Virus record (IMG/VR): IMGVR_UViG_3300045988_057025
DNA: 64,000 bases
Direction: 5' to 3' (one strand)
Source: a virus
In this document: positions 33,813-54,841 of the stretch, one piece after another
Numbering within the stretch: position 1 is the first letter of the stretch
Layout: every line of letters starts with the position of its first letter
Translations under genes and position numbers: made by a program
Notes under the pieces: model-generated
What the model was told of the DNA's origin: nothing
The model's database searches: none
The model's input: the letters and a program-made list of their open reading frames with translations, nothing else

Positions 33813-34622
33813 TTATTTACAAACGTCTATTACAGTTAAGTTCTCGTTGCCGGGACGATAATTAATATCCCTATGAGAATTAGATACAATAACCTGGTCA
33901 AAATTATTACACATATTAACCAGGCCTTTATCATTAACTACATGACATACGATTATGATAAACTTGCTATTTGGATATCTCTCTTTGAGAACCTTAAGCT
34001 CTCCTAGGAAAGTTCCTCCAGCATCACACAAGTCATCAATGAACACAAATGTAGAATAGTAGCAATTCTTAGACTCCTCTATTTCAAAGGACTCAATTCT
34101 TCCAGTCTCTAGATTTCTTTCCTTTTTGAAGACTAAATAACCATAGTGAGAATAGTTACTTCCATATCTGTCCTTCGCCCCATGGTCTGGGAACACGATA
34201 TTACTTTGGGCTGGAATCCAAGAGTAGTGTCCAAATTCCCAAGGTAAACATCTGTCACCAAGAAGATGAAAAGTTCTACTAGAATGTGCCTCAAGAACAT
34301 ATATGTTTCTATAGCCTAAGCTATTTAACATATTACATACTACTTTCAAGGAGAATGGACGATTAAAACTCATTACTCTATCCATACGCATAGACATTAA
34401 ATAAGTAATATGTAAATCCCATTCTACTTCTTGTCTATCTAAAATATCTCCTACTTGCATTAAGAGGAATAAATCCTCAGTATTAGATATTCTACAAATG
34501 ACATCAATAGATTCCTTTCTGTTTAATTCCTCAGTAAGGAAAAACTGAGGCTCTCCATCAGGAAATCTAGTAACATCGTACTTAATTTCACTGATTTCCT
34601 TGTTGATTAAGTTTAATTTCAT
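33813..34622 (-). CDS. ribose-phosphate pyrophosphokinase (PRPP synthetase)-like protein; Prs or Adps-type
   Basis: 269 aa; N-terminal FPDGEPQFFL (FSDGE-type), RMDR (RQDR-like) and PRPP-binding loop VFIDDLCDAGGTF. Confidence 0.7.
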   Translation of the reverse strand: MKLNLINKEISEIKYDVTRFPDGEPQFFLTEELNRKESIDVICRISNTEDLFLLMQVGDILDRQEVEWDLHITYLMSMRMDRVMSFNRPFSLKVVCNMLNSLGYRNIYVLEAHSSRTFHLLGDRCLPWEFGHYSWIPAQSNIVFPDHGAKDRYGSNYSHYGYLVFKKERNLETGRIESFEIEESKNCYYSTFVFIDDLCDAGGTFLGELKVLKERYPNSKFIIIVCHVVNDKGLVNMCNNFDQVIVSNSHRDINYRPGNENLTVIDVCK

Positions 34623-35052
34623 CTACTACATATTTTAAGATTTCATAACTTTCTTCTAGACCTGCCCTATCATCTAGGAGGATATTGTAATAAGGTTTCT
34701 TAGATTTAGAGAATATAGAACTACTAATGTTTGGAGCAGATAAAGTATTAGAAGTAATATTTGCTATTCCTAATCGCATACAAATTGTCTGCTTTGCCAT
34801 AATTTTATAATCATCTTCATCAGTGGTGAATAAAATCATTTCAAAACCTAGAAGTGAGCATTCTTTAAGTAGTTCTATAACGCAACTATAATCTCCGCCA
34901 GTATTATGGTAATCGAAAATAGTATTATCAAAATCGAAAGCGACTATTAGCTTTCTGTATTTATGATACTCTTCTAATAGTCGTTTCTTGCAAGCTTCTT
35001 TCCCAAAAGGATGATTAAAGTCCATGGTCAATTCTTTGTCTGATTTCTTCAA
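34588..35052 (-). CDS. HAD-family phosphatase-like protein
   Basis: 154 aa; motif I VAFDFDNTIFD. Confidence 0.45.
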   Translation of the reverse strand: MKKSDKELTMDFNHPFGKEACKKRLLEEYHKYRKLIVAFDFDNTIFDYHNTGGDYSCVIELLKECSLLGFEMILFTTDEDDYKIMAKQTICMRLGIANITSNTLSAPNISSSIFSKSKKPYYNILLDDRAGLEESYEILKYVVDEIKLNQQGNQ

Positions 35053-36565
35053 GAGAATATTCTTTCTTCAAGATACCATCTTCAAAGACAGTCTCTAAGC
35101 ATCCCTCTTTTTCCTCCTCGATTGAGACCTGGTCGGTAGCAGTATACTTCCCATCCAGACCTTTATAGACAGCAATCAAACCTTTCAAAGAGTTCTTAGT
35201 ACCATCATCAGTTTTAGGATGTTTGAAGATTTCTTTCAATTCTCCATTAATTACACAAGCAGTAGCCTTAATTGCAAATCCTAAGCTATCTCTACTTGCA
35301 TACTGATATGAAAATGAGCCTACTCCTAGAACAAGATTGCAAGCTGCCATATGAGCGTTCTCAAGTCGCATATAGATTTGCTTCTGACGTTCAAGAGTGA
35401 TAGAATCACCATACAACAAACCTATTTTCGTACTAGGATAGCGATAATCCTTAGAAGTAGTATTCCAGCCGAATATCTTACCAAGCATATAATATGCTCC
35501 GTAATATTGACCCTCTGACACTTCTACATACTCAGCATCATCGTTAAATGGAGCATAGCAACAATAATACTTACCCTCTTTCATCCTAGTATGGAAGTGA
35601 GGATTAGTTCTCAGTCCACAAATAATATCAACGGGGTCTCCGCTATCTGGACGAATAACTACACGCCCATCACGAGCCATAATATCCTTCTTTAATTTGG
35701 GAAGGAAGTTTTCAATAACATTCCAGAAGTCCCAAGTATCAGAAACTATAGAAACGAACCCAGATGGATACAATTCATTAATTAATCGCTTAAAGGTTTG
35801 AAGTTCGTCCTCTTCTCCACCAGCACACATTACAGAATGTTCTGTAGCTGGAACAGTAGCAGCAATTAATTCATTGTCAGAATTTGCACCATAATATTCT
35901 TCTAGAGCAGCAATAGCTGGAATGGTCTCACTTCCAACAAACGAAGTCATATGTGCCATACCAGAAATGATAGCAGCCTCTAAACCAGCCATTCCTCTCA
36001 TAGAGAAGTCATGACACAAGAAATCCAGATTTACATCTTCTGGAAATCCAGTATGTACTGCGTGTCTTTTAAGTTCCTTCTTATAGAGTCTTGCTCTAGT
36101 AGCAGAAGTGCAAGGCATCCACAGAGTACAACTAATCAAAGTCTCTAAATAATTAGTTAACCAGAAGAACTCTGACTTTGTATTAGTAATAGTCATCATG
36201 GGAACTCTGATAGGACATACAGAACCTTCTGGCAACGCTTTAATGCGAATGGGAAGATAACCTAAATCATACAAGGCTTCAATATGTTTATATCCTACGG
36301 ACTCAATTCCCACGAAGTTATGAACTCTTCGATAAAACATTTCTACAGCTTTCTCTTTGGGCAATCCAAAGAAATTCTGATTAAATTCATCAATCAGATA
36401 CTTCTTAATTAAATATTGGATTCCGAATACTACAGAACCTTCAGTGGCTTCTGGAAAGTATTTGTTACTTCTAGGAGTCCAATTACTGTAAACTTGTTCA
36501 GTACCTTCTGGATACATTCTATGGTGGCCCAATTTATAGCCATCTGTTGCATTAATTATTTCCAT
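35015..36565 (-). CDS. nicotinamide phosphoribosyltransferase-like enzyme (NamPRT/NadV or Namat-type)
   Basis: 516 aa; N-terminus INATDGYKLGHHRMYPEGTEQVYS parallels NAMPT [26 protein letters not shown]. Confidence 0.75.
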   Translation of the reverse strand: MEIINATDGYKLGHHRMYPEGTEQVYSNWTPRSNKYFPEATEGSVVFGIQYLIKKYLIDEFNQNFFGLPKEKAVEMFYRRVHNFVGIESVGYKHIEALYDLGYLPIRIKALPEGSVCPIRVPMMTITNTKSEFFWLTNYLETLISCTLWMPCTSATRARLYKKELKRHAVHTGFPEDVNLDFLCHDFSMRGMAGLEAAIISGMAHMTSFVGSETIPAIAALEEYYGANSDNELIAATVPATEHSVMCAGGEEDELQTFKRLINELYPSGFVSIVSDTWDFWNVIENFLPKLKKDIMARDGRVVIRPDSGDPVDIICGLRTNPHFHTRMKEGKYYCCYAPFNDDAEYVEVSEGQYYGAYYMLGKIFGWNTTSKDYRYPSTKIGLLYGDSITLERQKQIYMRLENAHMAACNLVLGVGSFSYQYASRDSLGFAIKATACVINGELKEIFKHPKTDDGTKNSLKGLIAVYKGLDGKYTATDQVSIEEEKEGCLETVFEDGILKKEYSLEEIRQRIDHGL

Positions 36566-36578: not shown

Positions 36579-37103
36579 TTAATAACTAATTGTTAATAAA
36601 CTTTTCATGCCTTTACCACTAGCTAAATTCTTAAAACACTGAGTGATAAATTCCTTCGTTTCTGGATGGATAGCCCTAGGAGAATTTATATACTTAATCC
36701 ACCAGTTATATTCTCCTTGAAAACTATTACCGTTGTATACTTTACCAGCAGCCAGATAATCGCATACCAATTCTAGAGCATACTCTTTAGGCATCTTCAC
36801 TGGAACACCGCCAATGTCTAGCTTAGTTACCCAGTATTCATAATGGTGTGGATTTCTTCCTCTGTGATGTAAATAAGACCTAGAATATCCTAGAATTTCT
36901 TTTTCCTTGTTTAAGGGAGATGTGTCATCATCGTAAAATTTTACAGAACGAGAGAACTCATACCATCCGAATTTAGATAAGTCGTGCAAGATGCCCTGTT
37001 TGTATAAACCTAACTGAAAACAGTAATAAGCTACCCAAAACTTATGTCTAAGTATTCGCCTAAGATGTCTCAGTGTTATACACATACATTTAAGAATTTC
37101 CAT
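36579..37103 (-). CDS. hypothetical protein
   Basis: 174 aa ORF. Confidence 0.3.
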   Translation of the reverse strand: MEILKCMCITLRHLRRILRHKFWVAYYCFQLGLYKQGILHDLSKFGWYEFSRSVKFYDDDTSPLNKEKEILGYSRSYLHHRGRNPHHYEYWVTKLDIGGVPVKMPKEYALELVCDYLAAGKVYNGNSFQGEYNWWIKYINSPRAIHPETKEFITQCFKNLASGKGMKSLLTISY

Positions 37104-37423
37104 ATCTTCTTCACTATTCTAGTTAGAAAATTATTTCCTCTTAGATTGAACTTATGTGTATATCCAGACAACTTGTCTGGATTCCACACAGCATGAACTA
37201 TATAGAATAAATATCCTACTGTGTATAGCATAATGTTCAGTACTGGGATAAATCCTAGGATTAGTATTACTAAAACTAGCCACACTGGAACTTTAAGGTC
37301 ATAGTCTTCTTCTATAAGTGCCACACTTCTGCTATACCCATTGTAATAAACGGTTACATGGGTATCTTTCAAGATAAGCACCGTGATGATTACCATCACA
37401 GTGCATATTACTAGATACATCAT
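37076..37423 (-). CDS. integral membrane protein
   Basis: 115 aa; three predicted hydrophobic helices. Confidence 0.35.
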   Translation of the reverse strand: MMYLVICTVMVIITVLILKDTHVTVYYNGYSRSVALIEEDYDLKVPVWLVLVILILGFIPVLNIMLYTVGYLFYIVHAVWNPDKLSGYTHKFNLRGNNFLTRIVKKIWKFLNVCV

Positions 37424-38247
37424 TTGTTATTAGCTACGTCTTTAAATAAGGTGGGAACCTGACCATAAGTAGGAAGTTTTCCATCCCACTTCTTAATCAT
37501 ATCCTGCTGAACTATGAGAACTGATAAAGATGCTGAAATCTTTCTATTATATTCAGCTTCTGCATCACCCTTAATCTTAAGAGCTTCTGCCTCTCCTTGT
37601 GCAGCTGCTACTTTCTTTTTAGCTTCTGCCTCAATAGTCTTAACTTCATTCTCTGCCTTCAAAGCCTGTTGAATTGCAGCATTCTTAGCATCAATAGAAT
37701 TGACTAGCGTCTGTGGATATTGAAGACCAGAAGTCATTTGTTCAAGCTGAAAATTCTCAGCCAAGAGTTCCTTTGACAGTCTATCTTCTATAGACTTCTC
37801 AAACTCCTCACGTTTACTTACTAGTTCATCAGTAGTATAGTTATTCAGCTGAATGCGAAAAGCATTCTTTACGTAATTATACAAAGTAGTGTTAATTACC
37901 TCTACAATATCTTCCTTTCTATACTTCTTAAATACTTCTGGTGATTTCCCGTCAACAATCTTCAAAGAAATTGTAGGGTCTACAGTAAATGATGATCCAT
38001 CTTTAGCATTAATACTGAAAGGAGGATAGTCCACAGTCTGTACGAATGTAGGATATTCATATACAGCCGTAGTAACAGGATTATACCACACCGCGCCAGT
38101 AACAAGAGACACATCGTCTACTCCCTTACCGTCTCCGTATAGATTCACCTTAATGCCTTCGTAACCAGCATCAATTCTCTCGTAGCCACAACTAGACAAG
38201 CCAAACACCAAAGTTAATACACACAAAAGCTTAATAATTGTCTTCAT
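37420..38247 (-). CDS. SPFH/band-7 family lipoprotein
   Basis: 275 aa; lipoprotein signal MKTIIKLLCVLTLVFGLSSC; SPFH-like core and Ala/Glu/Lys coiled-coil tail. Confidence 0.55.
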   Translation of the reverse strand: MKTIIKLLCVLTLVFGLSSCGYERIDAGYEGIKVNLYGDGKGVDDVSLVTGAVWYNPVTTAVYEYPTFVQTVDYPPFSINAKDGSSFTVDPTISLKIVDGKSPEVFKKYRKEDIVEVINTTLYNYVKNAFRIQLNNYTTDELVSKREEFEKSIEDRLSKELLAENFQLEQMTSGLQYPQTLVNSIDAKNAAIQQALKAENEVKTIEAEAKKKVAAAQGEAEALKIKGDAEAEYNRKISASLSVLIVQQDMIKKWDGKLPTYGQVPTLFKDVANNK

Positions 38248-38684: not shown

Positions 38685-39701
38685 TCATTGTTCAGAAATT
38701 ATTACGATACGATTAAATTCATTATCTCCAAATTCAGTGGTAATTCCACATCCCTTAACAACCAACTTATCCTCTGGAGCACCATAGCTAATCAGAGCTT
38801 TCTTCATAGATTCTGCTCTAGCTACAGCGAGGTTATTATTAAACTCTTCTGGACCCTCTTCCGAAGCATATCCCTCAATCACATAAGCTTTTCCACTATT
38901 AGAAATATAGGAAGCTAGTTCTGAGACAGCCACATTGGAAGTTTTAGAAATCTCTGAAGAATTTTGAAGGAATTGAATTTTTGGAGTCAAAAGCTCTACT
39001 TTAGTAATTTCGATTGTGTCTGTCTTAACAATTTCTATTGGTTTGCGAGCCATAAGTTCCTCATTCTTGGCTCTCAACTCATTAATAGAAGCATTTAGGC
39101 TTTCAACCTCAGCATCACTATACAACTTCATAATTGGAAAGTTACCCTTGCTAGACTTAAAGCGATAGGTAGCACCAATATAGATGTTAAACTCATGATT
39201 CAGAGGGGAAGTCTTGGGAAGTAACATATACTCAGGAGTAACATTTAATGCCCATCTATTAGAGATATTAAAGTTACATCTAACGGCTCCACGGGCGGAT
39301 ACATTATTATAGACACCTCCATAAGTATGATACCAACCAGCACCAATGATTAATATAGGCTCAAACAGACGTCTATCTCCGTTATATCCACATATCAGGT
39401 TAGTAAGATTGGTAGTAACGTTAGCTGTCAAATTATGTGAATCAAAGAATGTTTTATTTCCTTGGTTCATTCCAGCCATCATGTCTAACTCCAAGCCAAA
39501 GATAGGAGTAATCTCCTTACCAATAGCAATGTTTACTAGTACATCATTTGGTTCTGCCCAACTTCTATGGTTATCCCAAATAGTAGTTCCAACATTACCA
39601 GAAATATACCAGTTATCCTTCATACTTCCAGTCTCAACAACTTGTGCGCTAGCAAATGCACACATCAAACACAAACAAATAATACTAAAAATTCTCTTCA
39701 T
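38685..39701 (-). CDS. OmpA-family outer-membrane protein
   Basis: 338 aa; signal peptide MKRIFSIICLCLMCAFASAQ; C-terminal OmpA-like domain (NNLAVARAESMKKAL). Confidence 0.65.
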   Translation of the reverse strand: MKRIFSIICLCLMCAFASAQVVETGSMKDNWYISGNVGTTIWDNHRSWAEPNDVLVNIAIGKEITPIFGLELDMMAGMNQGNKTFFDSHNLTANVTTNLTNLICGYNGDRRLFEPILIIGAGWYHTYGGVYNNVSARGAVRCNFNISNRWALNVTPEYMLLPKTSPLNHEFNIYIGATYRFKSSKGNFPIMKLYSDAEVESLNASINELRAKNEELMARKPIEIVKTDTIEITKVELLTPKIQFLQNSSEISKTSNVAVSELASYISNSGKAYVIEGYASEEGPEEFNNNLAVARAESMKKALISYGAPEDKLVVKGCGITTEFGDNEFNRIVIISEQ

Positions 39702-43159: not shown

Positions 43160-43362
43160 TTTGTTAACTTATCAATTACATTTACTATAGATTCTTCTCC
43201 AGCTATGAAACCAGCTCTATGAGCATTCATAATAAGTTTCTTCAAACTTTCTAGCTCCTCTTTTGACTTAAGAGTATTGCTAGTATAAATCTCTACTAGT
43301 TCTTTTATGTATCTTTCCATATCAAAACATTTTATAGTACCCGAAGTGGGACTCGAACCCAC
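43156..43362 (-). CDS. hypothetical protein
   Basis: 68 aa ORF. Confidence 0.3.
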   Translation of the reverse strand: MGSSPTSGTIKCFDMERYIKELVEIYTSNTLKSKEELESLKKLIMNAHRAGFIAGEESIVNVIDKLTK

Positions 43363-43422
43363 ACGCCCTCAATGGGCATCAGAGCTTAAATCTGACGTGT
43401 CCACCAATTCCACCATCCGGGC
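43338..43422 (-). tRNA. tRNA-Leu(TAA)
   Basis: cloverleaf; anticodon loop TTTAAGC; long variable arm; T-loop GTGGGTTCGAGTCCCAC. Confidence 0.8.
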
Positions 43423-43538
43423 ATATGGTAGCTATTCTCACGAACCGCTACCGAGAGATAATCCTAAAGTATCATTTTTCTAATCTTCTTACTAGATTAG
43501 TCTCCGAATTGTTAAATTCAAAGTTAAAAACTGTTAAC

Positions 43539-43850
43539 TTACTTAAACTGTAGACAGGTGTTAATAAACTTATCAACATCAGTTCCACAATCAATATAGT
43601 TAGGGGTAACTTTTTCAAAGTATCTTAGATTAGCTTCTGTGCCTATTAACCCAAGCTCTTCAAAATCGTAACCCTCTCCATGAATATCAAAGGGTAGTCC
43701 AGGACTGAATGTCAACCAGGCTACTCCTTCAAATTCGCAACAAATACAAACTGTCAACCCACTTTCTCTTAGTCTGTCTAAGATTTGTGGACTGACAGTC
43801 TTTAATACTACACACTCACCCGAGTTCGGCGAGTCTCCGTTTGATTTCAT
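43539..43850 (-). CDS. hypothetical protein
   Basis: 103 aa ORF. Confidence 0.3.
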   Translation of the reverse strand: MKSNGDSPNSGECVVLKTVSPQILDRLRESGLTVCICCEFEGVAWLTFSPGLPFDIHGEGYDFEELGLIGTEANLRYFEKVTPNYIDCGTDVDKFINTCLQFK

Positions 43851-44190
43851 CTTCGGACAAGCTTTCTAACTTCTCAGATTGTTTCTTAGCTAACAGTTCC
43901 GTCAGGCGAGCCTTTTCAGCAGCCTTATTCTTAGCTGTCTCTCTATCAGCCTTCTCTTTTAGCTTATCCGTTATAATCTCCTTCACAATATTGAACTTCA
44001 ATTCAAGTTCGGTATTGCTGGGAGTATCATTAGTTATGAAAGACTTTCTTGGACTTTTAGCTAGTTCCTCATCGTAAGAAACGGCTAATTTATCCAATAC
44101 TGGCAGGCTCAAGTCCCACAAATCTTCTACACTCAGATTACCTTTACTAGTTGCGAAACGCAACTTCATTTTTGACGCTTGTTTAAACAT
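43816..44190 (-). CDS. hypothetical Lys/Glu-rich protein
   Basis: 124 aa ORF. Confidence 0.3.
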   Translation of the reverse strand: MFKQASKMKLRFATSKGNLSVEDLWDLSLPVLDKLAVSYDEELAKSPRKSFITNDTPSNTELELKFNIVKEIITDKLKEKADRETAKNKAAEKARLTELLAKKQSEKLESLSEDEIKRRLAELG

Positions 44191-44192
44191 AA

Positions 44193-46208
44193 TTAGAAAA
44201 TGATTTTAAATGATTTATTATCAACTTTTACAACAACATCATTGTGTGATGTGCTAGAAAATCCCAATCCACTCAACTGGTCATCACTGTACTCAGCTTT
44301 TGCTCTAGAACCAAGAGCTTCAAACACTCTTCTATGCTCCTTTTCAAGGTCAGCTCTCAGATATTCATTAAAGAAACCTCTAACAGGGTCTGGATTCTTG
44401 CATCCATCTATCATAAAGAACAGATGCTTGTTTCCTATAGCGTTGCCTTCCCAATGATTAGGAGAGAACATAATACAAGAAACCTTCTGGAATTTCATTG
44501 TATCAATTCCCCACTCGTTAGTAGATTTGAACGATGTAGAACCCTCTTTAATAGTAGGAGTCATGGAAATGTTTCTTTGTCCATCAACATGGATACGAGC
44601 AACTTCAATGTATTCCTTGCTCAGAACTACTTTTCCATACTGGAATTTGTGAAGTTCTCCATTAATCTCGATTTCCATTTCGAAACCAAAATCAATACTT
44701 TCCCTCTTATAGAAGTTATGCACTCTTACCACATAATCTCCCGGTCTTAGTCTGCTAGGGTCTGTCCATATGATGTTCTCAACAGCATCTCTAGTTTTTC
44801 CGGAACCTGCATTCATGTCAACATCAAGAGTTCCTCCAGTATAACCAGTTTTGCTTCCATAATAGATTTCTCTTCCACCAGGTTCGGTTACATGAAGGTC
44901 AAGGTCATCATAGTTAAACCAGTGAAGAGAGCATCTCATGAAACCGTCTACATTTCCACCAGCAGCCTTTACCTTCTCCTTGAAGGAATCGGCTACAGAA
45001 CCATTATAAACCCAAGCAAAGTTGTTATTCCACTTAAACAACTGTCCAGCATCCGGATTTTCAGGAGCAGTCAGAGTAACAAAGTTGGGAATATGTCTGT
45101 TCTCTACCAAGATAGAAACCTCCTTAGCTCCTGGAAGTACATTCTTGACAAAGGCATCAGCAGAAACTTCTTGGGCTTTGGTAAACTCTTTTGGATTTAC
45201 TGTAGAAGTCTCAGAGAGCATATCAAACATTCCTCCCTTCATCTTTGCTCTAGTATCTCTATTTACGAATAGAACATCATTCACAGAAATATCTTCCACA
45301 TGAGCATGACGACGAGGAAGTGCATCAGTAAGACCTAGCTCTTCTACCTTCTTCTGAGCGGCTTCAATTTGTTTCTTAGTAATAAGAGCAGTAGGTCTCT
45401 TATAGTTAGCAGGAGCCATGATGTTTTCATACGCTCTTACGGCTTTCTCCAGATCTACACCATTGCTTAGATCAATAAGTAAAGTTCCCATAGCCGTATT
45501 TCTAATCTTAGCTATAGGAGACTTAAAGTTTAACCAGCAATAGTTAGTTCTTACTTCTGGACTCAGAGTTTGAGCAGTAACTAGTGTTCTTCTAAATTCC
45601 TCCAAACTCTTCAAGAACTCTGCACCTCTATAGAGATTATTTCCTTCTATAAGCTCAATAACAGTTTCAACTGCCTCCAGCTTAAGCTCGCTGATAGAGC
45701 GTTCAAATACCCCAGCTCTTGCTCTGACATCTCCCCTGTAACCGGCAGCAGAGTCAAAACCATGAACTCGCCTGTTGAACTTGAAGTTATTCGGAATAGT
45801 TACGTACAGATGTGTCCAAGTTCTAGTTGTTCCATCAGGGAGTAGTTGAACATTATGGTCACAACCATGAAATTCGTTCACATCTTGAATGAAGACATCT
45901 CCTATTCCAGCTTCCTTAACTAATTTAGCTAGAGCCTGTGCTGTTTTCTCGTATCCAGGAGTGTGCACATCATCCCAGAATGTTTTAGTCTTATATGTTT
46001 GAGGGTCAATCGCTACAACTTTACCATAATGCCGGATAAAAGATTTACAGGCATTGCAGTTATGGTCTTGTCTAACGGTTTCATCTTCAAACGACAGAAG
46101 ATAGCCCATCCAAAGGAGGTCTTTATCAACATTAGCAACAAACAGGTTTTCTGCAATCATATTATTGAAAGCAGCTTCTACATCTTTCTTAAAATTCTTA
46201 AATTCCAT
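44193..46208 (-). CDS. large hypothetical protein
   Basis: 671 aa ORF, no recognisable motif. Confidence 0.35.
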   Translation of the reverse strand: MEFKNFKKDVEAAFNNMIAENLFVANVDKDLLWMGYLLSFEDETVRQDHNCNACKSFIRHYGKVVAIDPQTYKTKTFWDDVHTPGYEKTAQALAKLVKEAGIGDVFIQDVNEFHGCDHNVQLLPDGTTRTWTHLYVTIPNNFKFNRRVHGFDSAAGYRGDVRARAGVFERSISELKLEAVETVIELIEGNNLYRGAEFLKSLEEFRRTLVTAQTLSPEVRTNYCWLNFKSPIAKIRNTAMGTLLIDLSNGVDLEKAVRAYENIMAPANYKRPTALITKKQIEAAQKKVEELGLTDALPRRHAHVEDISVNDVLFVNRDTRAKMKGGMFDMLSETSTVNPKEFTKAQEVSADAFVKNVLPGAKEVSILVENRHIPNFVTLTAPENPDAGQLFKWNNNFAWVYNGSVADSFKEKVKAAGGNVDGFMRCSLHWFNYDDLDLHVTEPGGREIYYGSKTGYTGGTLDVDMNAGSGKTRDAVENIIWTDPSRLRPGDYVVRVHNFYKRESIDFGFEMEIEINGELHKFQYGKVVLSKEYIEVARIHVDGQRNISMTPTIKEGSTSFKSTNEWGIDTMKFQKVSCIMFSPNHWEGNAIGNKHLFFMIDGCKNPDPVRGFFNEYLRADLEKEHRRVFEALGSRAKAEYSDDQLSGLGFSSTSHNDVVVKVDNKSFKIIF

Positions 46209-46218
46209 TTTAAATCTA

Positions 46219-46440
46219 TTAAGTGTTCAACTTTTTGTTCATTTCTCCTTCTAAATTCCTAAGAGTTTCTATACTCTCCTCATAGAACTTATCCTTACCT
46301 AATTCACAGACTTTGTAATTAGATAATATTTGCTGGAATCGCAAATGTGGACTACATTCTATGATTTGAGCTAGTCTAGTTAAAATCTTAAAGTTAGCTT
46401 GTTTTCTAAGCTCAATAGCCTTTTCAATCTGGGCTTCCAT
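46219..46440 (-). CDS. hypothetical protein
   Basis: 73 aa ORF. Confidence 0.3.
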   Translation of the reverse strand: MEAQIEKAIELRKQANFKILTRLAQIIECSPHLRFQQILSNYKVCELGKDKFYEESIETLRNLEGEMNKKLNT

Positions 46441-46921
46441 ACTTGTTGATAATATCTAACTCTAATTCTTTAACCTTACTCTCATATAGAGAATCTTCGG
46501 CATATCCAATCCTATCTAGGAATCTATAATAGTCCTCTTCTGGATCGTACCTACTTAGAATAAATTGCTTATAAGCAAATACACAGCTTATCCAACTATC
46601 AAACTTGAAATAGGACATCGTTCTTGAATTATACAGTCCGAACAAATTATTGTTGTCCTTACAAAGTTTAGACTTGAAGTTACCAGATTCTAGAATAGCC
46701 TGAGCTGTTATGATAGCAGGACTTGGGAAATCATAGTGTTTAAGAGTATTATACAATACTTCCTCATTCACCTCCTCCATCAAATAGAATGGATGTTCCG
46801 GCATCAGCATAATTTTCTCCTCTGGAAACCTCGCAGAATGTATCCAGTGGTGCAAGGAATAACCAGTTGCAAATCCGAATACAATACTAATCATTAAAAT
46901 AATTAAAACTCTCTTTTTCAT
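46424..46921 (-). CDS. membrane-anchored peptidoglycan hydrolase (glucosaminidase-type lysin)
   Basis: 165 aa; N-terminal anchor; QAILESGNFKSK...NNLFGL matches FlgJ/glucosaminidase domain signature. Confidence 0.55.
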   Translation of the reverse strand: MKKRVLIILMISIVFGFATGYSLHHWIHSARFPEEKIMLMPEHPFYLMEEVNEEVLYNTLKHYDFPSPAIITAQAILESGNFKSKLCKDNNNLFGLYNSRTMSYFKFDSWISCVFAYKQFILSRYDPEEDYYRFLDRIGYAEDSLYESKVKELELDIINKYGSPD

Positions 46922-47214
46922 ATCTCAATAGAATTAATAAATCTTGCATCATTACATAGTTGATAAACAACTTTATCAAGTTCTGGGACATAGACTATAT
47001 AATAGTAATCAAAGAATTGGTTATTATCTTCGAACCCTATAATTATCCCTTTATGTCCACTATCTACCACACAGTCTCTAAATAAATATTTTGAAATATC
47101 TTGGCGGATGTCATCGTGGCCTGCCTGTAAAGCTGATATACCCCAGTAGGAAGTATTTGTACCCCTAACTTCCTTTCCTAATAAGTCCTTATCGTATGAA
47201 ATCTCAGTAATCAT
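46918..47214 (-). CDS. hypothetical protein
   Basis: 98 aa ORF. Confidence 0.3.
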   Translation of the reverse strand: MITEISYDKDLLGKEVRGTNTSYWGISALQAGHDDIRQDISKYLFRDCVVDSGHKGIIIGFEDNNQFFDYYYIVYVPELDKVVYQLCNDARFINSIEI

Positions 47215-47371
47215 GATGTTTTCTCAGGCTTATCCTTTTCTATGTTAACTACTATCATAAGCTCGGAATTAGGATTCTCACGATTCTTCGCCTTCCTGGC
47301 ATCTTCTTCGGTATCATACTGACCTATAATGAATGGGATATTATTTCTGCACTTAATCAGGTAGTATTCCT

Positions 47372-47563
47372 TCATTTTTCAATTCCAAAATAACTCTTTA
47401 ATAATTCTATATTCCCTTCCTTAAGATGTCTTATAATAGCTTTTCTCTCCTTTTCATAGAGAATAATCTTGCTTTCTAAGATATTTATCTTATGGTTGAA
47501 ATTATTTTCATATTCTTCCAGAGCTTCGGCAATGACTTTAATCGCAGTACAATCCTTCATCAT
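47372..47563 (-). CDS. hypothetical protein (shortened to internal Met to limit overlap)
   Basis: table ORF 47372..47701 overlaps neighbour by 164 nt; internal start MMKDCTAIK gives 64 aa. Confidence 0.25.
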   Translation of the reverse strand: MMKDCTAIKVIAEALEEYENNFNHKINILESKIILYEKERKAIIRHLKEGNIELLKSYFGIEK

Positions 47564-47987
47564 ACTCTTCGTTATAATAGTCCTCGCTTCCACTATCATC
47601 TCCGATAGGATTCTCCCAGCCATACTTTTCCGCAGTAGCCTTAAATAATGGCAAATACATAGCATAGTTATCCTCTGGATAATCCTCCAAGCCTTCCTCA
47701 AGAACTCTATTCCATCTAAGAACTACAGCAAACATCAGACTTGCAGAAATACCTCTCTTGTCAAGGGCTTTTTCAAATCCGAACTCTACATCTTCTTTAA
47801 GTTGGGAAAGAATATTCTCTCTAGTCCACTCTTTGGGTTCAGGATAAGGTTCATCACTATTCCACTTAAAACCTATTTTCTCTAACTGTTCCTGTGTCAG
47901 AAATTGAGCTAATCTAACTCCAAATCTATCGTCAAGAAATACAGACCATTCTTCGTAATTGTTTACGATTTCATCTAATGTTTTCAT
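47538..47987 (-). CDS. hypothetical acidic protein
   Basis: 149 aa ORF. Confidence 0.3.
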   Translation of the reverse strand: MKTLDEIVNNYEEWSVFLDDRFGVRLAQFLTQEQLEKIGFKWNSDEPYPEPKEWTRENILSQLKEDVEFGFEKALDKRGISASLMFAVVLRWNRVLEEGLEDYPEDNYAMYLPLFKATAEKYGWENPIGDDSGSEDYYNEEYDEGLYCD

Positions 47988-48313
47988 TATAATTCAGACA
48001 AATAAATGTTTTGAGGATATTCGTTAAATACTAGTAGAGTTACTGGACAAATCCAAACTCTATCGTTATAATTCTTACTTTTACACAAGTAAGTAGCTCC
48101 ATTCTCATCTTCTTCAATCTTAGATAGAACAATCTTAGCTACAGAAGGGTCAACCATCTGCAACCTAACAAATCTATCATCAAGAGAATCAAGAAGATCG
48201 TCAGCCCCGCCAACCATAGCCAACTCTCCTGGGTCTCCATCGAAGTCTGGCCACCAATAAAACCAGACTCCTCCCACTTTTACAAATTCAAATGTTTTTC
48301 GCATTAAACACAA
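47987..48313 (-). CDS. hypothetical protein
   Basis: 108 aa ORF. Confidence 0.3.
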   Translation of the reverse strand: MCLMRKTFEFVKVGGVWFYWWPDFDGDPGELAMVGGADDLLDSLDDRFVRLQMVDPSVAKIVLSKIEEDENGATYLCKSKNYNDRVWICPVTLLVFNEYPQNIYLSEL

Positions 48314-48324
48314 ATTAAATTAAA

Positions 48325-48359
48325 CAAAAAATACCCCAACAACTTTCGCTGCTGGGGTA
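48325..48359 (-). terminator. rho-independent terminator downstream of tRNA-Glu
   Basis: TACCCCA-loop-TGGGGTA hairpin followed by T-run on minus strand. Confidence 0.5.
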
Positions 48360-48364
48360 CATAG

Positions 48365-48436
48365 TAACGCCAACGGGATTCGAACCCGTATGGCAGGCGT
48401 GAAAAGCCTGAATCCTAACCATTAGATGATGGCGCT
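48365..48436 (-). tRNA. tRNA-Glu(TTC)
   Basis: anticodon arm CAGGC-TTTTCAC-GCCTG; T-arm ACGGGTTCGAATCCCGT; acceptor AGCGCCA/TGGCGTT. Confidence 0.8.
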
Positions 48437-48439
48437 ATC

Positions 48440-49114
48440 CTACTGCACAATCAAGCTATAAGCTTCTTGCAACAGTTTAATAGTTGGAACCATACGGTTA
48501 TCAACAACTATTATTTTATAAATGTTCAGAATTTCTTTGTAGGTTAAAGATGTACAAGTTAGAAATATCTGCACATCTTCGTTTACAGAACCATTTGACA
48601 ATCCTAAATCTACTTTAATCATACTGGGTAATGTCCCAATCTGAGAAATATCCCAAGTAGATTTAGTTCTCCTGAAAACTTCCCGCTGTTTGGAAGTAAG
48701 TTGCTTTTCTTTCAATCTAGACTCAATAATAGTACCATCAAACGTTAACGAACCTCCATCGGTATTACTATTATTTAATGCTAGCTGAATCTTCTGAACT
48801 GCAGAGTCTTTAGGTTTTGGCTTAAGTTGCACTCCTTCCTTCAAGCCCTTAATAATCTGCAATGAAGGAATAAAGTCTTTTATTTGAGTTGCATTCCATA
48901 CAAGAAATTTTCCAGGACTATCCTTAACAGTAACTATATACTTAGTCCCTCCGTTCAATGGAATAATCACTTGTAAGTCTGCATCACTCATTTTACTTAA
49001 ATGGTCTGATACTCTAACTTTGACGTTTCCAATGACAAAGTAGCGAGAAACAGTTGTTTCCGCTTCGATAATCTCAGTAGCAGTTGCTACTAAATACTTT
49101 TCTAATCTAGTCAT
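48440..49114 (-). CDS. hypothetical protein (TAG stop)
   Basis: 224 aa ORF ending in TAG 4 nt upstream of tRNA-Glu. Confidence 0.3.
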   Translation of the reverse strand: MTRLEKYLVATATEIIEAETTVSRYFVIGNVKVRVSDHLSKMSDADLQVIIPLNGGTKYIVTVKDSPGKFLVWNATQIKDFIPSLQIIKGLKEGVQLKPKPKDSAVQKIQLALNNSNTDGGSLTFDGTIIESRLKEKQLTSKQREVFRRTKSTWDISQIGTLPSMIKVDLGLSNGSVNEDVQIFLTCTSLTYKEILNIYKIIVVDNRMVPTIKLLQEAYSLIVQ

Positions 49115-49141
49115 AAAAATTAATCTAATTTAATGGTTAAG

Positions 49142-49214
49142 ATCCCCCACTCGGATTCGAACCGAGGTCTCGAGATTACAAATCACGTGTTCTAACCAAC
49201 TAAACTACAGGGGA
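49142..49214 (-). tRNA. tRNA-Thr(TGT)
   Basis: anticodon loop TTTGTAA, one mismatch in anticodon stem; T-arm CTCGGTTCGAATCCGAG; acceptor TCCCCTG/TGGGGGA. Confidence 0.7.
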
Positions 49215-49221
49215 ATAAATG

Positions 49222-49255
49222 CCGAGGCTGGGGGATTCGAACCCCAACCTTCACA
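49222..49255 (-). other. orphan tRNA 3' half (anticodon 3' stem + T-arm + acceptor 3' strand), diverged duplicate of the 3' half of tRNA-Asp
   Basis: TGTGAAGGTTGGGGTTCGAATCCCCCAGCCTCGG; pairs perfectly with acceptor and anticodon stem of the 5' half at 49915..49953. Confidence 0.55.
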
Positions 49256-49258
49256 GTG

Positions 49259-49320
49259 CCGAGAGTACCAGACTCGAACTGGTGACCTTCGCATAGACAG
49301 TGCACTATTCTACCACTGAA
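49259..49320 (-). tRNA. tRNA-Asp(GTC), intact copy
   Basis: CGAGGGT acceptor, D-arm GTTCAGTGGTAGAAT, anticodon loop CTGTCTA (pos 37 is U, one stem mismatch), T-arm ACCAGTTCGAGTCTGGT. Confidence 0.65.
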
Positions 49321-49341
49321 CTAACCCTCGGTGTAACTGGA

Positions 49342-49893
49342 TTACTCCAGACTAATTAAACCCTTCTCTAACATAATATGGTGATTCGGACATAACCATA
49401 CTAAATTATTCTCGTTGTTAATCTCCTTAATAAGAGTGTCTTCGTCAAATTCTAATATTCCTTTAAGATGATGTACTTCAAGTATTGCATCAAATTCATG
49501 ATTATGACAATATTGACATACTTTCTCACGTTCGGAACTTTCTAATACTCTACGAGCATTAGTCCTTATTTCTTGACATTTAGATGATAAGTACTTCTGC
49601 CCAGATGTATAATAACCTAATGTTTTGTTACCAATTCCATTAAGTTCTTCCCAGCAACTACGACACATTTCTGAATCTTTATGCTTAGGTTTACCACATC
49701 TAGGACATATCTTGTTTTCATCGTGCTTTATCCTACCTCTATTATTGTAAGAAGCAGCACACGAATGACTACAAAACTGTTTCTTCCTCACATCTGCGAC
49801 CCTCTGATTATCTAGTACTTCGATTACCTTACCACATTCCTTACAGTGGTTAGGATTCTCATAATACAATTTAAGAGATTGTTCTCGATTCAC
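49342..49893 (-). CDS. HNH homing endonuclease
   Basis: 183 aa, GTG start; Zn-finger CxxC pairs; C-terminal HNH motif VHHLKG...NLVWLCPNHH. Confidence 0.75.
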   Translation of the reverse strand: MNREQSLKLYYENPNHCKECGKVIEVLDNQRVADVRKKQFCSHSCAASYNNRGRIKHDENKICPRCGKPKHKDSEMCRSCWEELNGIGNKTLGYYTSGQKYLSSKCQEIRTNARRVLESSEREKVCQYCHNHEFDAILEVHHLKGILEFDEDTLIKEINNENNLVWLCPNHHIMLEKGLISLE

Positions 49894-49914
49894 AGATAAG
49901 TTTAATTAATTTTA

Positions 49915-49953
49915 ATGACAGTGTGATATGCAAGCCATTACACCACAGCCTCG
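49915..49953 (-). other. orphan tRNA 5' half (acceptor 5' strand, D-arm, anticodon 5' stem and GTC anticodon loop)
   Basis: CGAGGCTGTGGTGTAATGGCTTGCATATCACACTGTCAT; acceptor CGAGGCT is exact complement of AGCCTCG in 49222..49255. Confidence 0.5.
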
Positions 49954-50030
49954 AAAATGCAGGTATTTATCTCGTTACACCTGCGAGTCCGGCAATCCTT
50001 TCTTATATACCGCGTGAGCTGGCGGTTTTG

Positions 50031-50104
50031 TAGGGCTAATCAGACTTGAACTGATAACCTCCACATTATCAGTGTGGTGCTCTAACCAGTTGAGCTATAG
50101 CCCT
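50031..50104 (-). tRNA. tRNA-Ile(GAT)
   Basis: acceptor AGGGCTA/TAGCCCT; anticodon arm CCACA-CTGATAA-TGTGG; T-loop TTCAAGT. Confidence 0.8.
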
Positions 50105-50110
50105 ATTATG

Positions 50111-50671
50111 TGGACCTAACGGGAGTCGAACCCGTGTCCAAACAACCCTCGTTACAAGGATAACGTGCGTCTCATTTTTATTATATCAGCTAGGGAGTTC
50201 TAGCATTTAGGTAGTTTTATAAGTCTTACAAGAGTCCATACTAAGTATTTCTCTAGATGCTTATCTACAAGCTACCAAACTATAGGGCTGACCGAAGTCA
50301 ACGTTCCACCACTCCATTTACGTTGGAGAACGGAATGATACTTTAGAGATTCGTCACATCTCACGGAACACATCTTCCATCTGTTTTATGACATAGGAGA
50401 TTCAGTCTTACTAACTCTTAGAGTGTTCTGATTAAGAGCATATTACTAGGATTAGAGCCTAGCTCTCCATTATATCAATATACTCAACCTCTTCTGTTTC
50501 TAGGTCTCTCCCGTAACCCGACTTAGTTAATAGTGTCTACCAACAAGCCAGCAGCTTAGGCTGCCATTCTTACTTCGCTATAAGTAGCATTTATTATTTT
50601 CCTTCGTTTAAAGAGATTGCGCTCTACACGTCCTTATAATTCGTAATCGCCTGTCAAATCCAAGTAGGCCC
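50111..50671 (-). ncRNA. ssrA: tmRNA (SsrA)-like RNA, unusually long (~560 nt)
   Basis: 5' GGGCCTACTTGGATTTGACAGGCGATT matches tmRNA 5' consensus GGGGCUGAUUCUGGAUUCGACGGGAUUU; 3' GGACACGGGTTCGACTCCCGTTAGGTCCA matches GGACGCGGGUUCAACUCCCGCCAGCUCCA; G3-U70 pair; P2 pairing AAGGACGTG/CACGTTATCCTT; candidate tag ORF ...GCT ACT TAT AGC GAA GTA AGA ATG GCA GCC TAA (ATYSEVRMAA*). Confidence 0.6.
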
Positions 50672-50713
50672 ATGTTCCAGTTTATCTCTGATTAGAAAAC
50701 TGGAGAAAAGAAA

Positions 50714-50971
50714 TTATAGCATTATAGTTGAGCCAGGAGGCAAAATTGTGACCTTACAAGTAAGCAAACGACGCGTATCCTCAACAGTAAACAGCTTAGG
50801 ATAGCATAGACCGCTACGCCCACCAATGATAATTAAAGCATCTCCGTACCTCTGAACTATAGTTCCAGGCTCCATTTCCTCGTCACAGAACCAATTTACA
50901 ATCTCAGCTACATCTCCATCTTTCATATTTGTAAGATGTGTTGTGATTGTCTTATTAATTACTTTTGCCAT
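50714..50971 (-). CDS. hypothetical protein
   Basis: 85 aa ORF. Confidence 0.3.
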   Translation of the reverse strand: MAKVINKTITTHLTNMKDGDVAEIVNWFCDEEMEPGTIVQRYGDALIIIGGRSGLCYPKLFTVEDTRRLLTCKVTILPPGSTIML

Positions 50972-51533
50972 GTAAACACTGTTTTAATATTTCCTTAGTA
51001 ACTACTCTATCAGCTTCTCTAGATAGCTTATCCAACTTTTCTAAGTCAAACTCGCTAGACTGGAACTTAAATTGAATCCAAGTTGGTTCACTAGGTCTAT
51101 AGTCTAAATAAGTCTCACACTTATCAGTTCCCAAAACCTCATGCACCATAGCTAATATACGTTCACCAGCAGCTTTAGTTTTTACGAATCCAGATAAATC
51201 ATATCCAACACCTCTAGAACTCCAGTATTCTCCTTCCTCTGGACGAATGTCTTTTGGTTCCCAATGCCAGGCAGAAACACCGGACCTAGGATGAGCAATA
51301 CGATGAGCATACTCCATTACGGATTCCGAATTTGGATCAGAAGGATTCTCTGGATGAGAGCCATATTGCACTATGCCTTTTCCGTTATCACTTCTTATTT
51401 CGAATGTTAGTTTACAATGTCTGCAAGTTCCAGAGGTAACTCCTCCGCAAGAGAAACAACCACTGGTCACAGAATCACATCCACAATTAGGACAACCCCA
51501 TTCCTTAAATTCTGAGAATAATATAGATAACAT
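50955..51533 (-). CDS. hypothetical Cys-rich protein
   Basis: 192 aa; N-terminal CPNCGC...CFSCGG...CRHC cluster. Confidence 0.3.
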   Translation of the reverse strand: MLSILFSEFKEWGCPNCGCDSVTSGCFSCGGVTSGTCRHCKLTFEIRSDNGKGIVQYGSHPENPSDPNSESVMEYAHRIAHPRSGVSAWHWEPKDIRPEEGEYWSSRGVGYDLSGFVKTKAAGERILAMVHEVLGTDKCETYLDYRPSEPTWIQFKFQSSEFDLEKLDKLSREADRVVTKEILKQCLHGKSN

Positions 51534-51826
51534 TAGTAATTAGGTTTAAATTCTACTTCCTTTAATACAACATACATCTTACCATCCTTCTGTTCTATAC
51601 AACCATTGGCCTGTAGAAAATTAATTATAAAGTCCATAGGAATGTGGTAATTGTCAGTTACAAGCATACTGCCATCAATATGATAGCGTTCTTTTCTCTC
51701 TAATCTAGTGGGATTACCATTTATAGTAATCTCACCAGAACATTCATTATCCTTATCTGGTTTAATTCCCTTTATGTAAATAGAATAACCAGCTTCAGCT
51801 AAATAAACTTGTTGTATTACACTCAT
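51533..51826 (-). CDS. hypothetical protein
   Basis: 97 aa ORF. Confidence 0.3.
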   Translation of the reverse strand: MSVIQQVYLAEAGYSIYIKGIKPDKDNECSGEITINGNPTRLERKERYHIDGSMLVTDNYHIPMDFIINFLQANGCIEQKDGKMYVVLKEVEFKPNY

Positions 51827-52248
51827 AGTTTTGGAACATCAGAACGGTTATCATGATAGCCCTCGTCCCCAACAAGTTGGGCTAAACAACCGTGCATATA
51901 AGGAACAAGTTCGGGTTTCTCCTTATAACACCTGTATAGCATCCAACTCATGCTCATAGAGTTTCCACTATGACCATTATCAAAGTACGGAAGTTTGTCT
52001 TTGATAGCCTCAATCAGCTCAAATAAGCTAGGATATTTCTCATAGAAGGCTTTACATTCCTCTAGACTCATTTCTTTGAAAAACTCGGTAAACGATAAGG
52101 CCTGCTTTATACAACCCATTTCATAACCAAATAGGTCATTTTCTTCAAATGTACCATCACCAGCTTCAATGAATAAACGATTGAAACGTTCGATTCTCTC
52201 CTGAAATTCTTTCGGAAGAGATTCCTTTGTAAGATTCTTGAAATCCAT
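51823..52248 (-). CDS. hypothetical protein
   Basis: 141 aa ORF. Confidence 0.3.
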   Translation of the reverse strand: MDFKNLTKESLPKEFQERIERFNRLFIEAGDGTFEENDLFGYEMGCIKQALSFTEFFKEMSLEECKAFYEKYPSLFELIEAIKDKLPYFDNGHSGNSMSMSWMLYRCYKEKPELVPYMHGCLAQLVGDEGYHDNRSDVPKL

Positions 52249-52279
52249 AATCTAATTTTAATTGTTAAAAATAACTTAG

Positions 52280-52352
52280 TAACGGGAGTCGGATTCGAAC
52301 CGACGACCTTCAGGTTATGAGCCTGACTAGCTACCTCTGCTATCATCCCGCG
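52280..52352 (-). tRNA. tRNA-Met(CAT), first of three CAT tRNAs (Met/fMet/Ile-lysidine not resolved)
   Basis: anticodon arm TCAGG-CTCATAA-CCTGA; T-arm GTCGGTTCGAATCCGAC; D-stem TAGC/GCTA; imperfect 1-72 pairing. Confidence 0.65.
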
Positions 52353-52560
52353 ATATTACAAATGCTTTTTAATTAGTTTACAATGATTATACTCTCCTCC
52401 CCATCTAATAGGAAACTCTTTTTCCTTAGCCTCTTTATACTTCTCTGCCTGTTTCTTGTCTAAGAAGATTTGGCAATCAGTTTCATAATTTTGAGGAGCA
52501 TTAGCTGGTGATAATTTACTACAACTACATATACTTTCATAATTTTTTAAATAAAGTTTG

Positions 52561-52633
52561 TGGACACGCAGGGACTCGAACCCTATCTTCCGGTGTGCAA
52601 AACCAGCGCTCTAGCCATTTGAGCTAACGGCCC
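52561..52633 (-). tRNA. tRNA-Ala(TGC)
   Basis: acceptor GGGCCGT with G3-U70; D-arm GCTCAAATGGCTAGAGC; anticodon loop TTTGCAC; T-loop TTCGAGT; lower acceptor stem pairs poorly. Confidence 0.6.
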
Positions 52634-54339: not shown

Positions 54340-54359
54340 ATTTTTAAATTTAAAATTAG

Positions 54360-54444: not shown

Positions 54445-54445
54445 A

Positions 54446-54835: not shown

Positions 54836-54841
54836 AAATGT

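Follow-up and report, generated by a model that had tools for sequence, protein, structure and literature searches.

A 64,000-nucleotide stretch of viral DNA (IMG/VR virus record IMGVR_UViG_3300045988_057025), which we call the window, carries at positions 33813–36565 three minus-strand open reading frames (ORFs) of 516, 145 and 269 amino acids (aa), all of them overlapping. On balance we favour the reading that this locus is a NARP1-type NAD+ reconstitution operon joined by an accessory phosphatase of the HAD family, and that the phosphatase is likeliest to act on a phosphorylated ADP-ribose (ADPR), the lead candidate being ADPR-1''-phosphate (ADPR-1''P). The core of the locus is a divergent member of the known NARP1 system. 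With the HAD gene added, it apparently represents a form of phosphatase-extended NARP1 that had not been described before and that is found widely among the phages and prophages of Bacteroidota and Bacillota. What was computed here, and is reported below, comprises the assignment of the proteins to families, their conserved catalytic and specificity residues, the fold and motifs of the HAD protein, the linkage of the genes and the exclusivity with the Macro-domain phosphatase Adpp. An initial annotation of the window had described the three clustered genes, a distant 184 aa ORF and the motifs FPDGE and DDLCDAGGT; all are present.

NARP1 makes NAD+ anew from ADPR and nicotinamide, and it overcomes the defences Thoeris, DSR1/2, SIR2-HerA and SEFIR (Osterman et al., bioRxiv 10.1101/2024.02.11.579819). 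It does so in two reactions. In the first, catalysed by Adps, ADPR and ATP yield ADP-ribose pyrophosphate (ADPR-PP) and AMP; in the second, catalysed by Namat, ADPR-PP and nicotinamide yield NAD+ and pyrophosphate (PPi). Structures from the NARP1 of Bacillus phage SPbetaL1 and Vibrio phage ICP1 are described in PMC12774641 and PMC13586617. For its discoverers, Adps next to Namat is the operational definition of NARP1.

How can a Namat be told from a housekeeping nicotinamide phosphoribosyltransferase (NamPRT)? The best match of the 516 aa protein in the Protein Data Bank (PDB) is 9W5X/9W5W (E = 4.6e-149, 500 bits), compared with about 224 bits for human NAMPT. These entries show SPbetaL1 Namat in complex with nicotinamide and with NAD+ (PMC12774641). 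The window protein shares 49% identity (470 bits) with SPbetaL1 Namat, as against 30% (199 bits) with a Nampt of the KVP40 type. Its tblastn matches in the phage collection are bimodal, at 34–50% identity in phages that carry Adps and at 31% or less in T4-like and KVP40-like phages. In a neighbour-joining tree of 17 sequences, 13 of them linked to Adps (the window protein included) and four of them Nampts of the NARP2 type, the window protein falls in the Namat clade, which is split from the Nampts at 98/100% bootstrap. The initial annotation had offered both a classical salvage set and the Adps/Namat route, with a lean towards the latter, and had proposed phylogenetic placement as the check. 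Tree, pairwise scores and the clamp described next uphold the lean and count against classical salvage.

The published signature of Namat is a clamp helix, GS-X-φ-X-φ-X-φ-TRD, in which the aromatic X residues stack on the adenine of ADPR-PP, together with a stacking residue in the clamp loop (PMC12774641). In the window protein the helix reads GSFSYQYASRD. All three X positions are aromatic, F418 and Y422 corresponding to F392 and Y396 of SPbetaL1, and Ser replaces Thr as it does in all members from Bacteroidota phages. The four NARP2-type Nampts have GGGLLQ at this position. The clamp loop, PRSNKYF, presents Lys then Tyr (K35-Y36), a Lys-then-aromatic arrangement described for Bas63 Namat (PMC12774641). 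At the catalytic core, F187, R190, R305 and D307 are all retained. Two features set the protein apart from SPbetaL1 Namat. The first is an insertion of about 40 residues (LRTNPHFHTRMKEGKYYCCYAPFNDDAEYVEVSEGQYY; residues ~318–355), at which the HMMER alignment splits into two domains. The second is a Glu (E213) at the position of D215, an Asp that hydrogen-bonds nicotinamide in SPbetaL1 Namat and whose change to Ala costs about 8-fold in activity. The Glu is shared with all three Namats of crAss-like phages, while the Bacillus, Vibrio and Nampt sequences of the same alignment have Asp; judging from this substitution, the preference for the pyridine base could be altered. The NCBIfam NamPRT equivalog NF006629 was tried as a discriminator and rejected, since two validated Namats (594 and 424 bits) and the KVP40-type Nampt all pass its cut-off of 405, as does the window protein (529 bits). 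By its sequence, we conclude, the 516 aa protein is a predicted Namat and not a housekeeping NamPRT.

The 269 aa protein is the partner expected of such an enzyme. It matches phrog_619 (1.2e-51), and against the Prs model TIGR01251 (cut-off 113) it scores 59.6 bits, where SPbetaL1 Adps scores 106, ICP1 Adps 98 and E. coli Prs 423; each of the nine Prs models of NCBIfam gives it a score far short of the cut-off. In BLASTP comparisons SPbetaL1 Adps (67.8 bits) and ICP1 Adps (63.2 bits) both outscore E. coli Prs (39.7 bits), and these results agree with the earlier suggestion that the shortened Prs homolog is an Adps. Identity to the validated Adps enzymes is 27–28%. The residues of ICP1 Adps that bind ADPR and ATP, the essential K185 among them, are known from structures (PMC13586617). 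Conserved in the window protein are F20, R79, H113, D146, K167, D196, D197, C199, D200 and F205, the equivalents, in that order, of F18, R87, H121, D161, K185, D212, D213, C215, D216 and F221 of ICP1. This comparison is based on the published residue list; a PDB sequence search returned chains of phosphoribosyl pyrophosphate (PRPP) synthetase (PRPS) only, the ICP1 Adps entries cited in PMC13586617 not being among the matches. The pyrophosphate (PP) loop, CDAGGT-F, resembles CDGAAS-F of ICP1, and the protein ends before the C-terminal regulatory segment of PRPS (α11–α12), at 269 aa compared with 315 aa for Prs. Phe92 of ICP1, which stacks on adenine, is Met in the window protein and Glu in SPbetaL1, a position thus not kept family-wide. 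From these features the 269 aa protein is a putative Adps. Since its scores, its residues and its lost C-terminus are those of an Adps, and since its gene accompanies that of a Namat, we assign the locus to NARP1. As in SPbetaL1 and ICP1, a PRPS-like Adps and a Nampt-like Namat are encoded together, with the clamp motif, the catalytic residues, the catalytic Lys of Adps, the PP loop and the truncated C-terminus all retained. Unlike in those phages, Namat comes first, Adps last and a third gene lies between them.

Might the locus instead be a classical salvage set of the NARP2 kind (Nampt plus NMNAT/Nudix, as in Vibrio phage KVP40), in which the 269 aa protein would be a PRPP synthetase, the 516 aa protein a NamPRT making nicotinamide mononucleotide (NMN), and an NMNAT would complete NAD+? 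The window does combine, as KVP40 does, an enzyme of the Nampt family with an NMNAT-like gene, and it was the latter, at 12971–13525, that had led the initial annotation to suppose that the phage may carry both routes. The 184 aa product matches Pfam CTP_transf_like (1.3e-9) and, over its full length, the archaeal NMNATs 1F9A, 1M8J and 1EJ2 as its best PDB hits (E from 3e-9 to 1e-7), and it has the HxGH and SxTxxR motifs of nucleotidyltransferases. Its best NCBIfam match, the NMNAT subfamily NF002243, gives 52.8 bits for a cut-off of 127, and it stays below every curated NMNAT cut-off. The NMNAT named earlier thus stands as an NMNAT-like gene by its motifs and archaeal matches, and does not stand by the family cut-offs. 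There is no Nudix domain; with the phage NadM-Nudix enzymes only the first 40 residues are shared, and NadR models match weakly, at the N-terminus. Among cultured phages only Bacteroides phage BS-TP1, itself not among the HAD matches, has a relative of it over the full length. The gene is kept in the window's lineage, where 17–25 kb always separate it from the module. The crAss-like, Lak and Bacillus phages that carry NARP1 with the HAD gene lack it, some lineages outside the HAD list have it, and for these reasons we do not count it as part of the module.

A true NMNAT is plausible from these matches, and if it is one the protein could convert NMN to NAD+. Two further points lend classical salvage some colour: the pass mark in NF006629, and the report that SPbetaL1 Namat keeps about half of the NMN-forming activity of human Nampt in vitro (PMC12774641), so that some flux is conceivable. 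Nevertheless, NF006629 does not discriminate, the window holds a single Nampt-family gene and that gene lies in the Namat clade with an aromatic adenine clamp where Nampts have GGGLLQ, the Prs-like protein reaches 59.6 of the 113 bits required and lacks the PRPS C-terminus, and the NMNAT-like gene, some 20 kb off, is unlinked to the module outside the window's lineage. No phage in the original NARP survey combined NARP1 with NARP2. Classical salvage is therefore highly improbable as the function of this locus, and two parallel routes are weakly supported, the one Namat/Nampt homolog being of the NARP1 type and the sub-threshold NMNAT-like gene being unlinked and without Nudix. An NMNAT beside NARP1, if true, would be notable given that survey, although it would still not make a full NARP2.

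What is the gene in the middle? The initial annotation had listed it as a HAD phosphatase with no role; the identity holds, and this gene has proved the most informative part of the locus, a conserved component of a NARP1 variant. The 145 aa protein has HAD motifs I (DxDxT/V), II (S/T), III (K) and IV (DD) within a Rossmannoid HAD fold, and all four catalytic motifs are invariant. The confident structural model is that of a capless HAD phosphatase. The open active site of capless HAD enzymes suits a bulky, dinucleotide-like substrate. In a Foldseek search of the PDB the sole confident match of the model was 2OBB (BT0820 of Bacteroides thetaiotaomicron); in BFVD, structure searches returned only generic HAD and nucleotidase labels. 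Structural neighbours include the 3'-phosphatase of T4 Pnkp and 5'(3')-deoxyribonucleotidases. BT0820 differs from the window family in lacking its N-terminal helix, with the invariant R15, and its Y112-Y113-N114 motif, and the window protein scores 20 bits against the NCBIfam model of the BT0820 family (cut-off 165). A literature search on the function of BT0820/2OBB found nothing relevant.

Clustered at 50% identity, the global protein set holds 867 clusters of this family, for which Pfam has no model. It is phrog_1238, labelled 'phosphoheptose isomerase', a label that has been carried into the RefSeq records of cr126_1, cr111_1, BPS10C and others and that is, given the fold and the motifs, probably wrong. 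Other annotators have called some of the homologs polynucleotide kinase or hydrolase. One member of 290 aa (P0220) is fused to a domain resembling nucleoside 2-deoxyribosyltransferase (PF15891, 3.6e-18). The only other fusion seen, to GIY-YIG, is probably a homing-endonuclease artefact, and none to Adps, Namat, Macro or NMNAT was found. The P0220 fusion and the nucleotide phosphatases among the structural neighbours are compatible with a substrate of nucleotide type, and they do not choose among the candidates.

Does the HAD gene belong to NARP1, or does it merely travel with it? Homologs occur in 82 records of cultured phages, 54 of them of Bacillus and 15 of Prevotella Lak megaphages, with crAss-like phages in addition; the family as a whole spans crAss-like phages, Lak megaphages, Bacillus Bastillevirinae and genomes of Bacteroidota and Bacillota. 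We surveyed 237 loci with a HAD homolog, in three sets, counting neighbours within 5 kb. Adps and Namat were both present in 69 of the 77 loci from close IMG/VR relatives. Among 80 divergent IMG/VR relatives, both were found in 59, one in 7 (mostly at contig ends) and neither in 14. In species-representative bacterial genomes, mostly of Bacteroidota (Saprospiraceae, Flavobacterium, Cytophagales, Mucilaginibacter) and Bacillota (Paenibacillus, Cohnella), 64 of 80 loci had both and 10 had neither. Over all sets both genes accompany the HAD gene in 192 loci (81%) and at least one of them in 207 (87%), leaving about 13% with neither.

This association is kept through at least four gene orders. Namat–HAD–Adps is that of the window and of crAss-like phages; Adps–HAD–Namat, the commonest outside the window's lineage, is found in 48 of the 64 complete genomic loci and in many viral ones; HAD–Adps–Namat occurs in some loci; and Adps–Namat–HAD is that of Bacillus phages such as BPS10C. 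The coding sequences often overlap in the rearranged loci too, and beyond the window's lineage Adps and Namat are the only conserved neighbours. Because the link is kept through these rearrangements and across unrelated phage groups, it argues for a functional tie between the HAD gene and Adps and Namat. We consider it very unlikely, then, that the HAD gene is a passenger unrelated to NAD+, such as a nucleotidase of the deoxynucleotide (dNTP) pool or an end-healing phosphatase like PNKP. Such a role would suit the labels polynucleotide kinase and hydrolase, the T4 Pnkp phosphatase among the structural neighbours, the loci with no NARP1 nearby and a window rich in genes of nucleic-acid metabolism, RNA and DNA ligases included. 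It does not account for a linkage that survives in unrelated phages and in bacterial genomes while no other neighbour is conserved, and even the loci lacking NARP1 tend to be NAD-centred, with Sir2 two genes away in two phage contigs (L086 and L241) and a NadE-like gene nearby in a third locus (L197).

If the HAD enzyme belongs to the pathway, on what might it act? The closest precedent comes from a defence that NARP1 alone does not counter. The RES-domain defence aRES degrades NAD+ to nicotinamide and ADPR-1''P, which NARP1 cannot use, and about 15% of NARP1 operons carry the Macro-domain phosphatase Adpp, which restores ADPR; the tested example of this NARP1-AP is the Adps–Adpp–Namat operon of Vibrio phage Gary (Osterman et al., bioRxiv 10.64898/2026.01.28.702374). 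By the published criterion, NARP1-AP has a Macro domain (Pfam PF14519, PF01661 or PF20016) within two genes of NARP1. The window resembles Gary in being a three-gene operon with a small phosphatase gene embedded in NARP1, and many HAD loci have the identical order Adps–phosphatase–Namat. The two phosphatases are nevertheless unrelated in sequence, structure and mechanism, the HAD fold working through an aspartyl-phosphate intermediate. They also differ in host range, the HAD type occurring in Bacteroidota and Bacillota and the Macro type, among the entries of the published table that we examined, in Vibrio, Pseudomonas, Acinetobacter and Pseudoalteromonas; Bacillus, Bacteroides, Flavobacterium, Paenibacillus, Staphylococcus and Mycobacterium are all missing from that table.

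Pfam detects no Macro domain in the window module or its neighbours. A profile built from 10 Adpp sequences of the published Table S1, which gives 193 bits with the control Vibrio phage Wyman, a close relative of Gary, matched no six-frame ORF of the window and none of the 237 HAD loci. In the reverse test, the SPbetaL1, ICP1, Wyman and XZ1 loci gave no match to the HAD profile. The two phosphatases thus co-occur in no locus examined. The published table of predicted aRES systems includes genomes of Bacteroides thetaiotaomicron, Bacillus cereus, Flavobacterium, Paenibacillus and Saprospiraceae. The same slot in the operon, the mutual exclusivity and the predicted aRES in the relevant host genera are our grounds for an Adpp-like role, and none of them is decisive.

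A second precedent is RyDEP, a glycosidase with a RyR domain that lies next to NARP1 in mycobacteriophage DyoEdafos and turns cyclic ADPR immune signals into linear ADPR (bioRxiv 10.64898/2026.05.28.727677). There as here an accessory enzyme adjoins NARP1, and the ADPR that RyDEP makes passes to NAD+ by way of Adps and Namat; the accessory enzyme of the window is a predicted phosphatase where RyDEP is a glycosidase, and Pfam detected neither RyR nor another domain in the ORFs that flank the module. Adpp and RyDEP thus constitute two precedents for suppliers of ADPR adjacent to NARP1, and they support such a role for the HAD enzyme.

We therefore propose the following scheme, in which we infer all of the enzymatic activities, the HAD substrate in particular. 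A host defence NADase would split NAD+ into nicotinamide and ADPR. Adps would move pyrophosphate from ATP to the terminal ribose of ADPR, and Namat would join the resulting ADPR-PP to nicotinamide, so that the phage could replicate despite NAD+-depleting immunity. That these two enzymes rebuild NAD+ from ADPR, ATP and nicotinamide is very probable on their sequences. The HAD enzyme would take the phosphate off an ADPR derivative that is no substrate for Adps, the lead candidate being the ADPR-1''P released by aRES, and the ADPR so made would extend the reach of the pathway, as the unrelated Adpp does in NARP1-AP. It seems likely that the HAD enzyme serves this pathway as a dedicated accessory, readying a modified ADPR for it by dephosphorylation. 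ADPR-1''P is by analogy with Adpp the best candidate for its substrate, at somewhat short of an even chance.

Linkage fixes the pathway of the enzyme and not its substrate. It is possible, if rather unlikely, that within the same NAD+ module the HAD protein converts 2'-phospho-ADPR, which NADases make from NADP+, to ADPR, or NADP+ to NAD+, or hydrolyses the PPi that Namat releases and so drives the Namat reaction onward. The nucleotide 2'/3'/5'-phosphatases among its structural neighbours (T4 Pnkp, the 5'(3')-deoxyribonucleotidases) would fit such substrates, and the P0220 fusion likewise points to a nucleotide. An inorganic pyrophosphatase of the HAD family, BT2127, exists in Bacteroides and lends some credit to PPi hydrolysis. 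Host pyrophosphatase is normally abundant, however, so that a dedicated phage enzyme would add little, and the position shared with Adpp, the exclusivity and the predicted aRES in the host genera favour, although they do not settle, the Adpp-like role. It is also conceivable, though on the unlikely side, that the enzyme is tuned to a phosphorylated product of NAD+ breakdown that no described defence makes, for example another phospho-ADPR isomer or 2'-phospho-ADPR from effectors directed at NADP+. The immunity of Bacteroidota and Bacillota would then include a way of destroying NAD(P)+ that has yet to be discovered, and this widespread three-gene variant of NARP1 would have evolved to meet it.

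Several points weigh against a NARP1 operon whose HAD enzyme serves phosphorylated ADPR. To our knowledge no HAD enzyme hydrolyses ADPR-1''P, the known ones being Macro domains, and neither sequence nor fold is a good guide to what a HAD phosphatase acts on, a notorious difficulty with these enzymes. About 13% of the loci lack both Adps and Namat, so the tie of the family to NARP1 is not a strict one. Close relatives are numerous among the surveyed loci, and the counts given above overstate the number of independent events. Finally, the predicted NARP1 enzymes themselves depart from the characterised ones in residues that contact ligand, Glu standing for the nicotinamide-binding Asp215 in Namat and Met for Phe92 of ICP1 in Adps.

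We found no paper that links a HAD phosphatase to NARP1, which, our coverage of the literature being incomplete, is absence of evidence only. NARP1 operons of Paenibacillus and Cohnella (L249, L254, L258–L260 and others) also carry the HAD gene. Bacterial NARP1 has been validated in Paenibacillaceae, and in the sections consulted of the paper that did so we saw no mention of a HAD gene (PMC12774641).

Some of the surveyed loci differ in composition. In the phage contigs L086 (3686–5384) and L241 (3485–5405), neither of which has NARP1, a Sir2-family gene and a gene with a CxxxCxxC (radical-SAM-like) motif precede the HAD gene, an arrangement that may be a different NAD-related module. In another viral genome (IMGVR_UViG_2872351278_000001, L085, 4965–8963) the order is HAD, a gene of the isochorismatase/nicotinamidase family, Adps, Namat and NAD synthase (NadE); the clamp helix of its Namat has an insertion of nine residues (GSFSMQCVEEDGVLKPFTRD), a hint that the pathway may exist here in a nicotinate or deamido form. 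In Prevotella phage Lak-C1 (L003, 5530–6864) the HAD gene is followed directly by Adps, and no Namat was found within the 6 kb flank on either side. Another part of the 540 kb genome may encode it, or the alternative genetic code of Lak phages may mask it.

How is the module set in its genome? Coordinates are collected in table 1. The HAD gene is the only one between Namat and Adps and overlaps them by 11 and 35 nt, respectively, from which we take the three genes to be one expression unit. Its ATG start gives the 145 aa that is also the length of its closest database homologs; an alternative TTG start gives 154 aa. A scan for sigma-70 promoters and terminators over 32.8–38.6 kb found fewer promoter-like sites than in shuffled sequence and gave nothing that could be interpreted, Bacteroidota promoters being outside the scope of the tool. 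The window is a co-directional array of genes for replication and nucleotide metabolism, with DNA polymerase, sigma factor, RNA and DNA ligases, dUTPase, NrdD/NrdG, primase and helicases, and its 19 tRNA genes lie among small ORFs. Its sequence recurs in human-gut viral contigs of IMG/VR of about 95–193 kb, and the nearest cultured relatives of the module are in the crAss-like Bacteroides phages DAC15 and DAC17. Among the roughly 50 window ORFs scanned with Pfam and PHROGs, some small ORFs being outside the scan, we found no Nudix, PncA, NadE or Sir2 gene, and no match to PnuC or NadR, the hallmarks of NARP3.

Table 1. Positions of the module genes and of other features in the 64 kb window.
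Feature	Position	Strand	Remarks
Namat (nicotinamide ADP-ribose transferase), predicted	35015..36565	(-)	516 aa; first module gene
NARP1-associated HAD-family phosphatase, predicted	34588..35025	(-)	145 aa; middle module gene; start ATG at 35025
HAD gene, alternative start	34588..35052	(-)	154 aa; start TTG at 35052
Adps (ADP-ribose pyrophosphokinase, PRPS-like), predicted	33813..34622	(-)	269 aa; last module gene
NMNAT-like nucleotidyltransferase	12971..13525	(-)	184 aa; ~20 kb from module, same co-directional array
DUF5662 protein	36579..37103		directly upstream of Namat; Pfam 1.5e-28
SPFH/Band-7 protein	37420..38247		
SPFH/Band-7 protein	60273..62246		
Protein with outer-membrane beta-barrel and OmpA domains	38685..39701		both on one phage-encoded protein
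Calcineurin-like metallophosphoesterase	4720..5415		
Calcineurin-like metallophosphoesterase	14951..15622		between NrdG-like and NrdD-like genes
tRNA genes (19)	43337..63192	(-)	3x tRNA-Met; 2x each Cys, Gly, Leu, Ser

The DUF5662 protein has an HD-like motif, GILHDLSKF, and accompanies the module solely inside the window's phage lineage. One of the two SPFH/Band-7 proteins is a predicted lipoprotein encoded two genes upstream of the module, and in the crAss-like phage cr126_1 an SPFH gene is likewise two genes away from the NARP1–HAD module. These two neighbours and the ORFs of 100, 115 and 157 aa were considered as additional members of the module and rejected, all being specific to the lineage. 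The window further encodes two calcineurin-like metallophosphoesterases, a broad superfamily of which the NAD+ diphosphatase of Metis (MisA), a system that splits NAD+ to give NMN and AMP, is a member.

NAD+ depletion is among the commonest antiviral strategies of bacteria, and NARP1 is the main known answer of phages to it. The core of the window extends NARP1 to the large phages of gut Bacteroidota. Should the HAD enzyme be an ADPR-1''P phosphatase, two unrelated folds would have been recruited convergently to one and the same step of counter-defence, and defence by RES-type NAD+ phosphorolysis would be predicted to be important for gut Bacteroides as well as for Bacillus. Should its substrate differ, the enzyme would be a pointer to a new chemistry of NAD+ cleavage.

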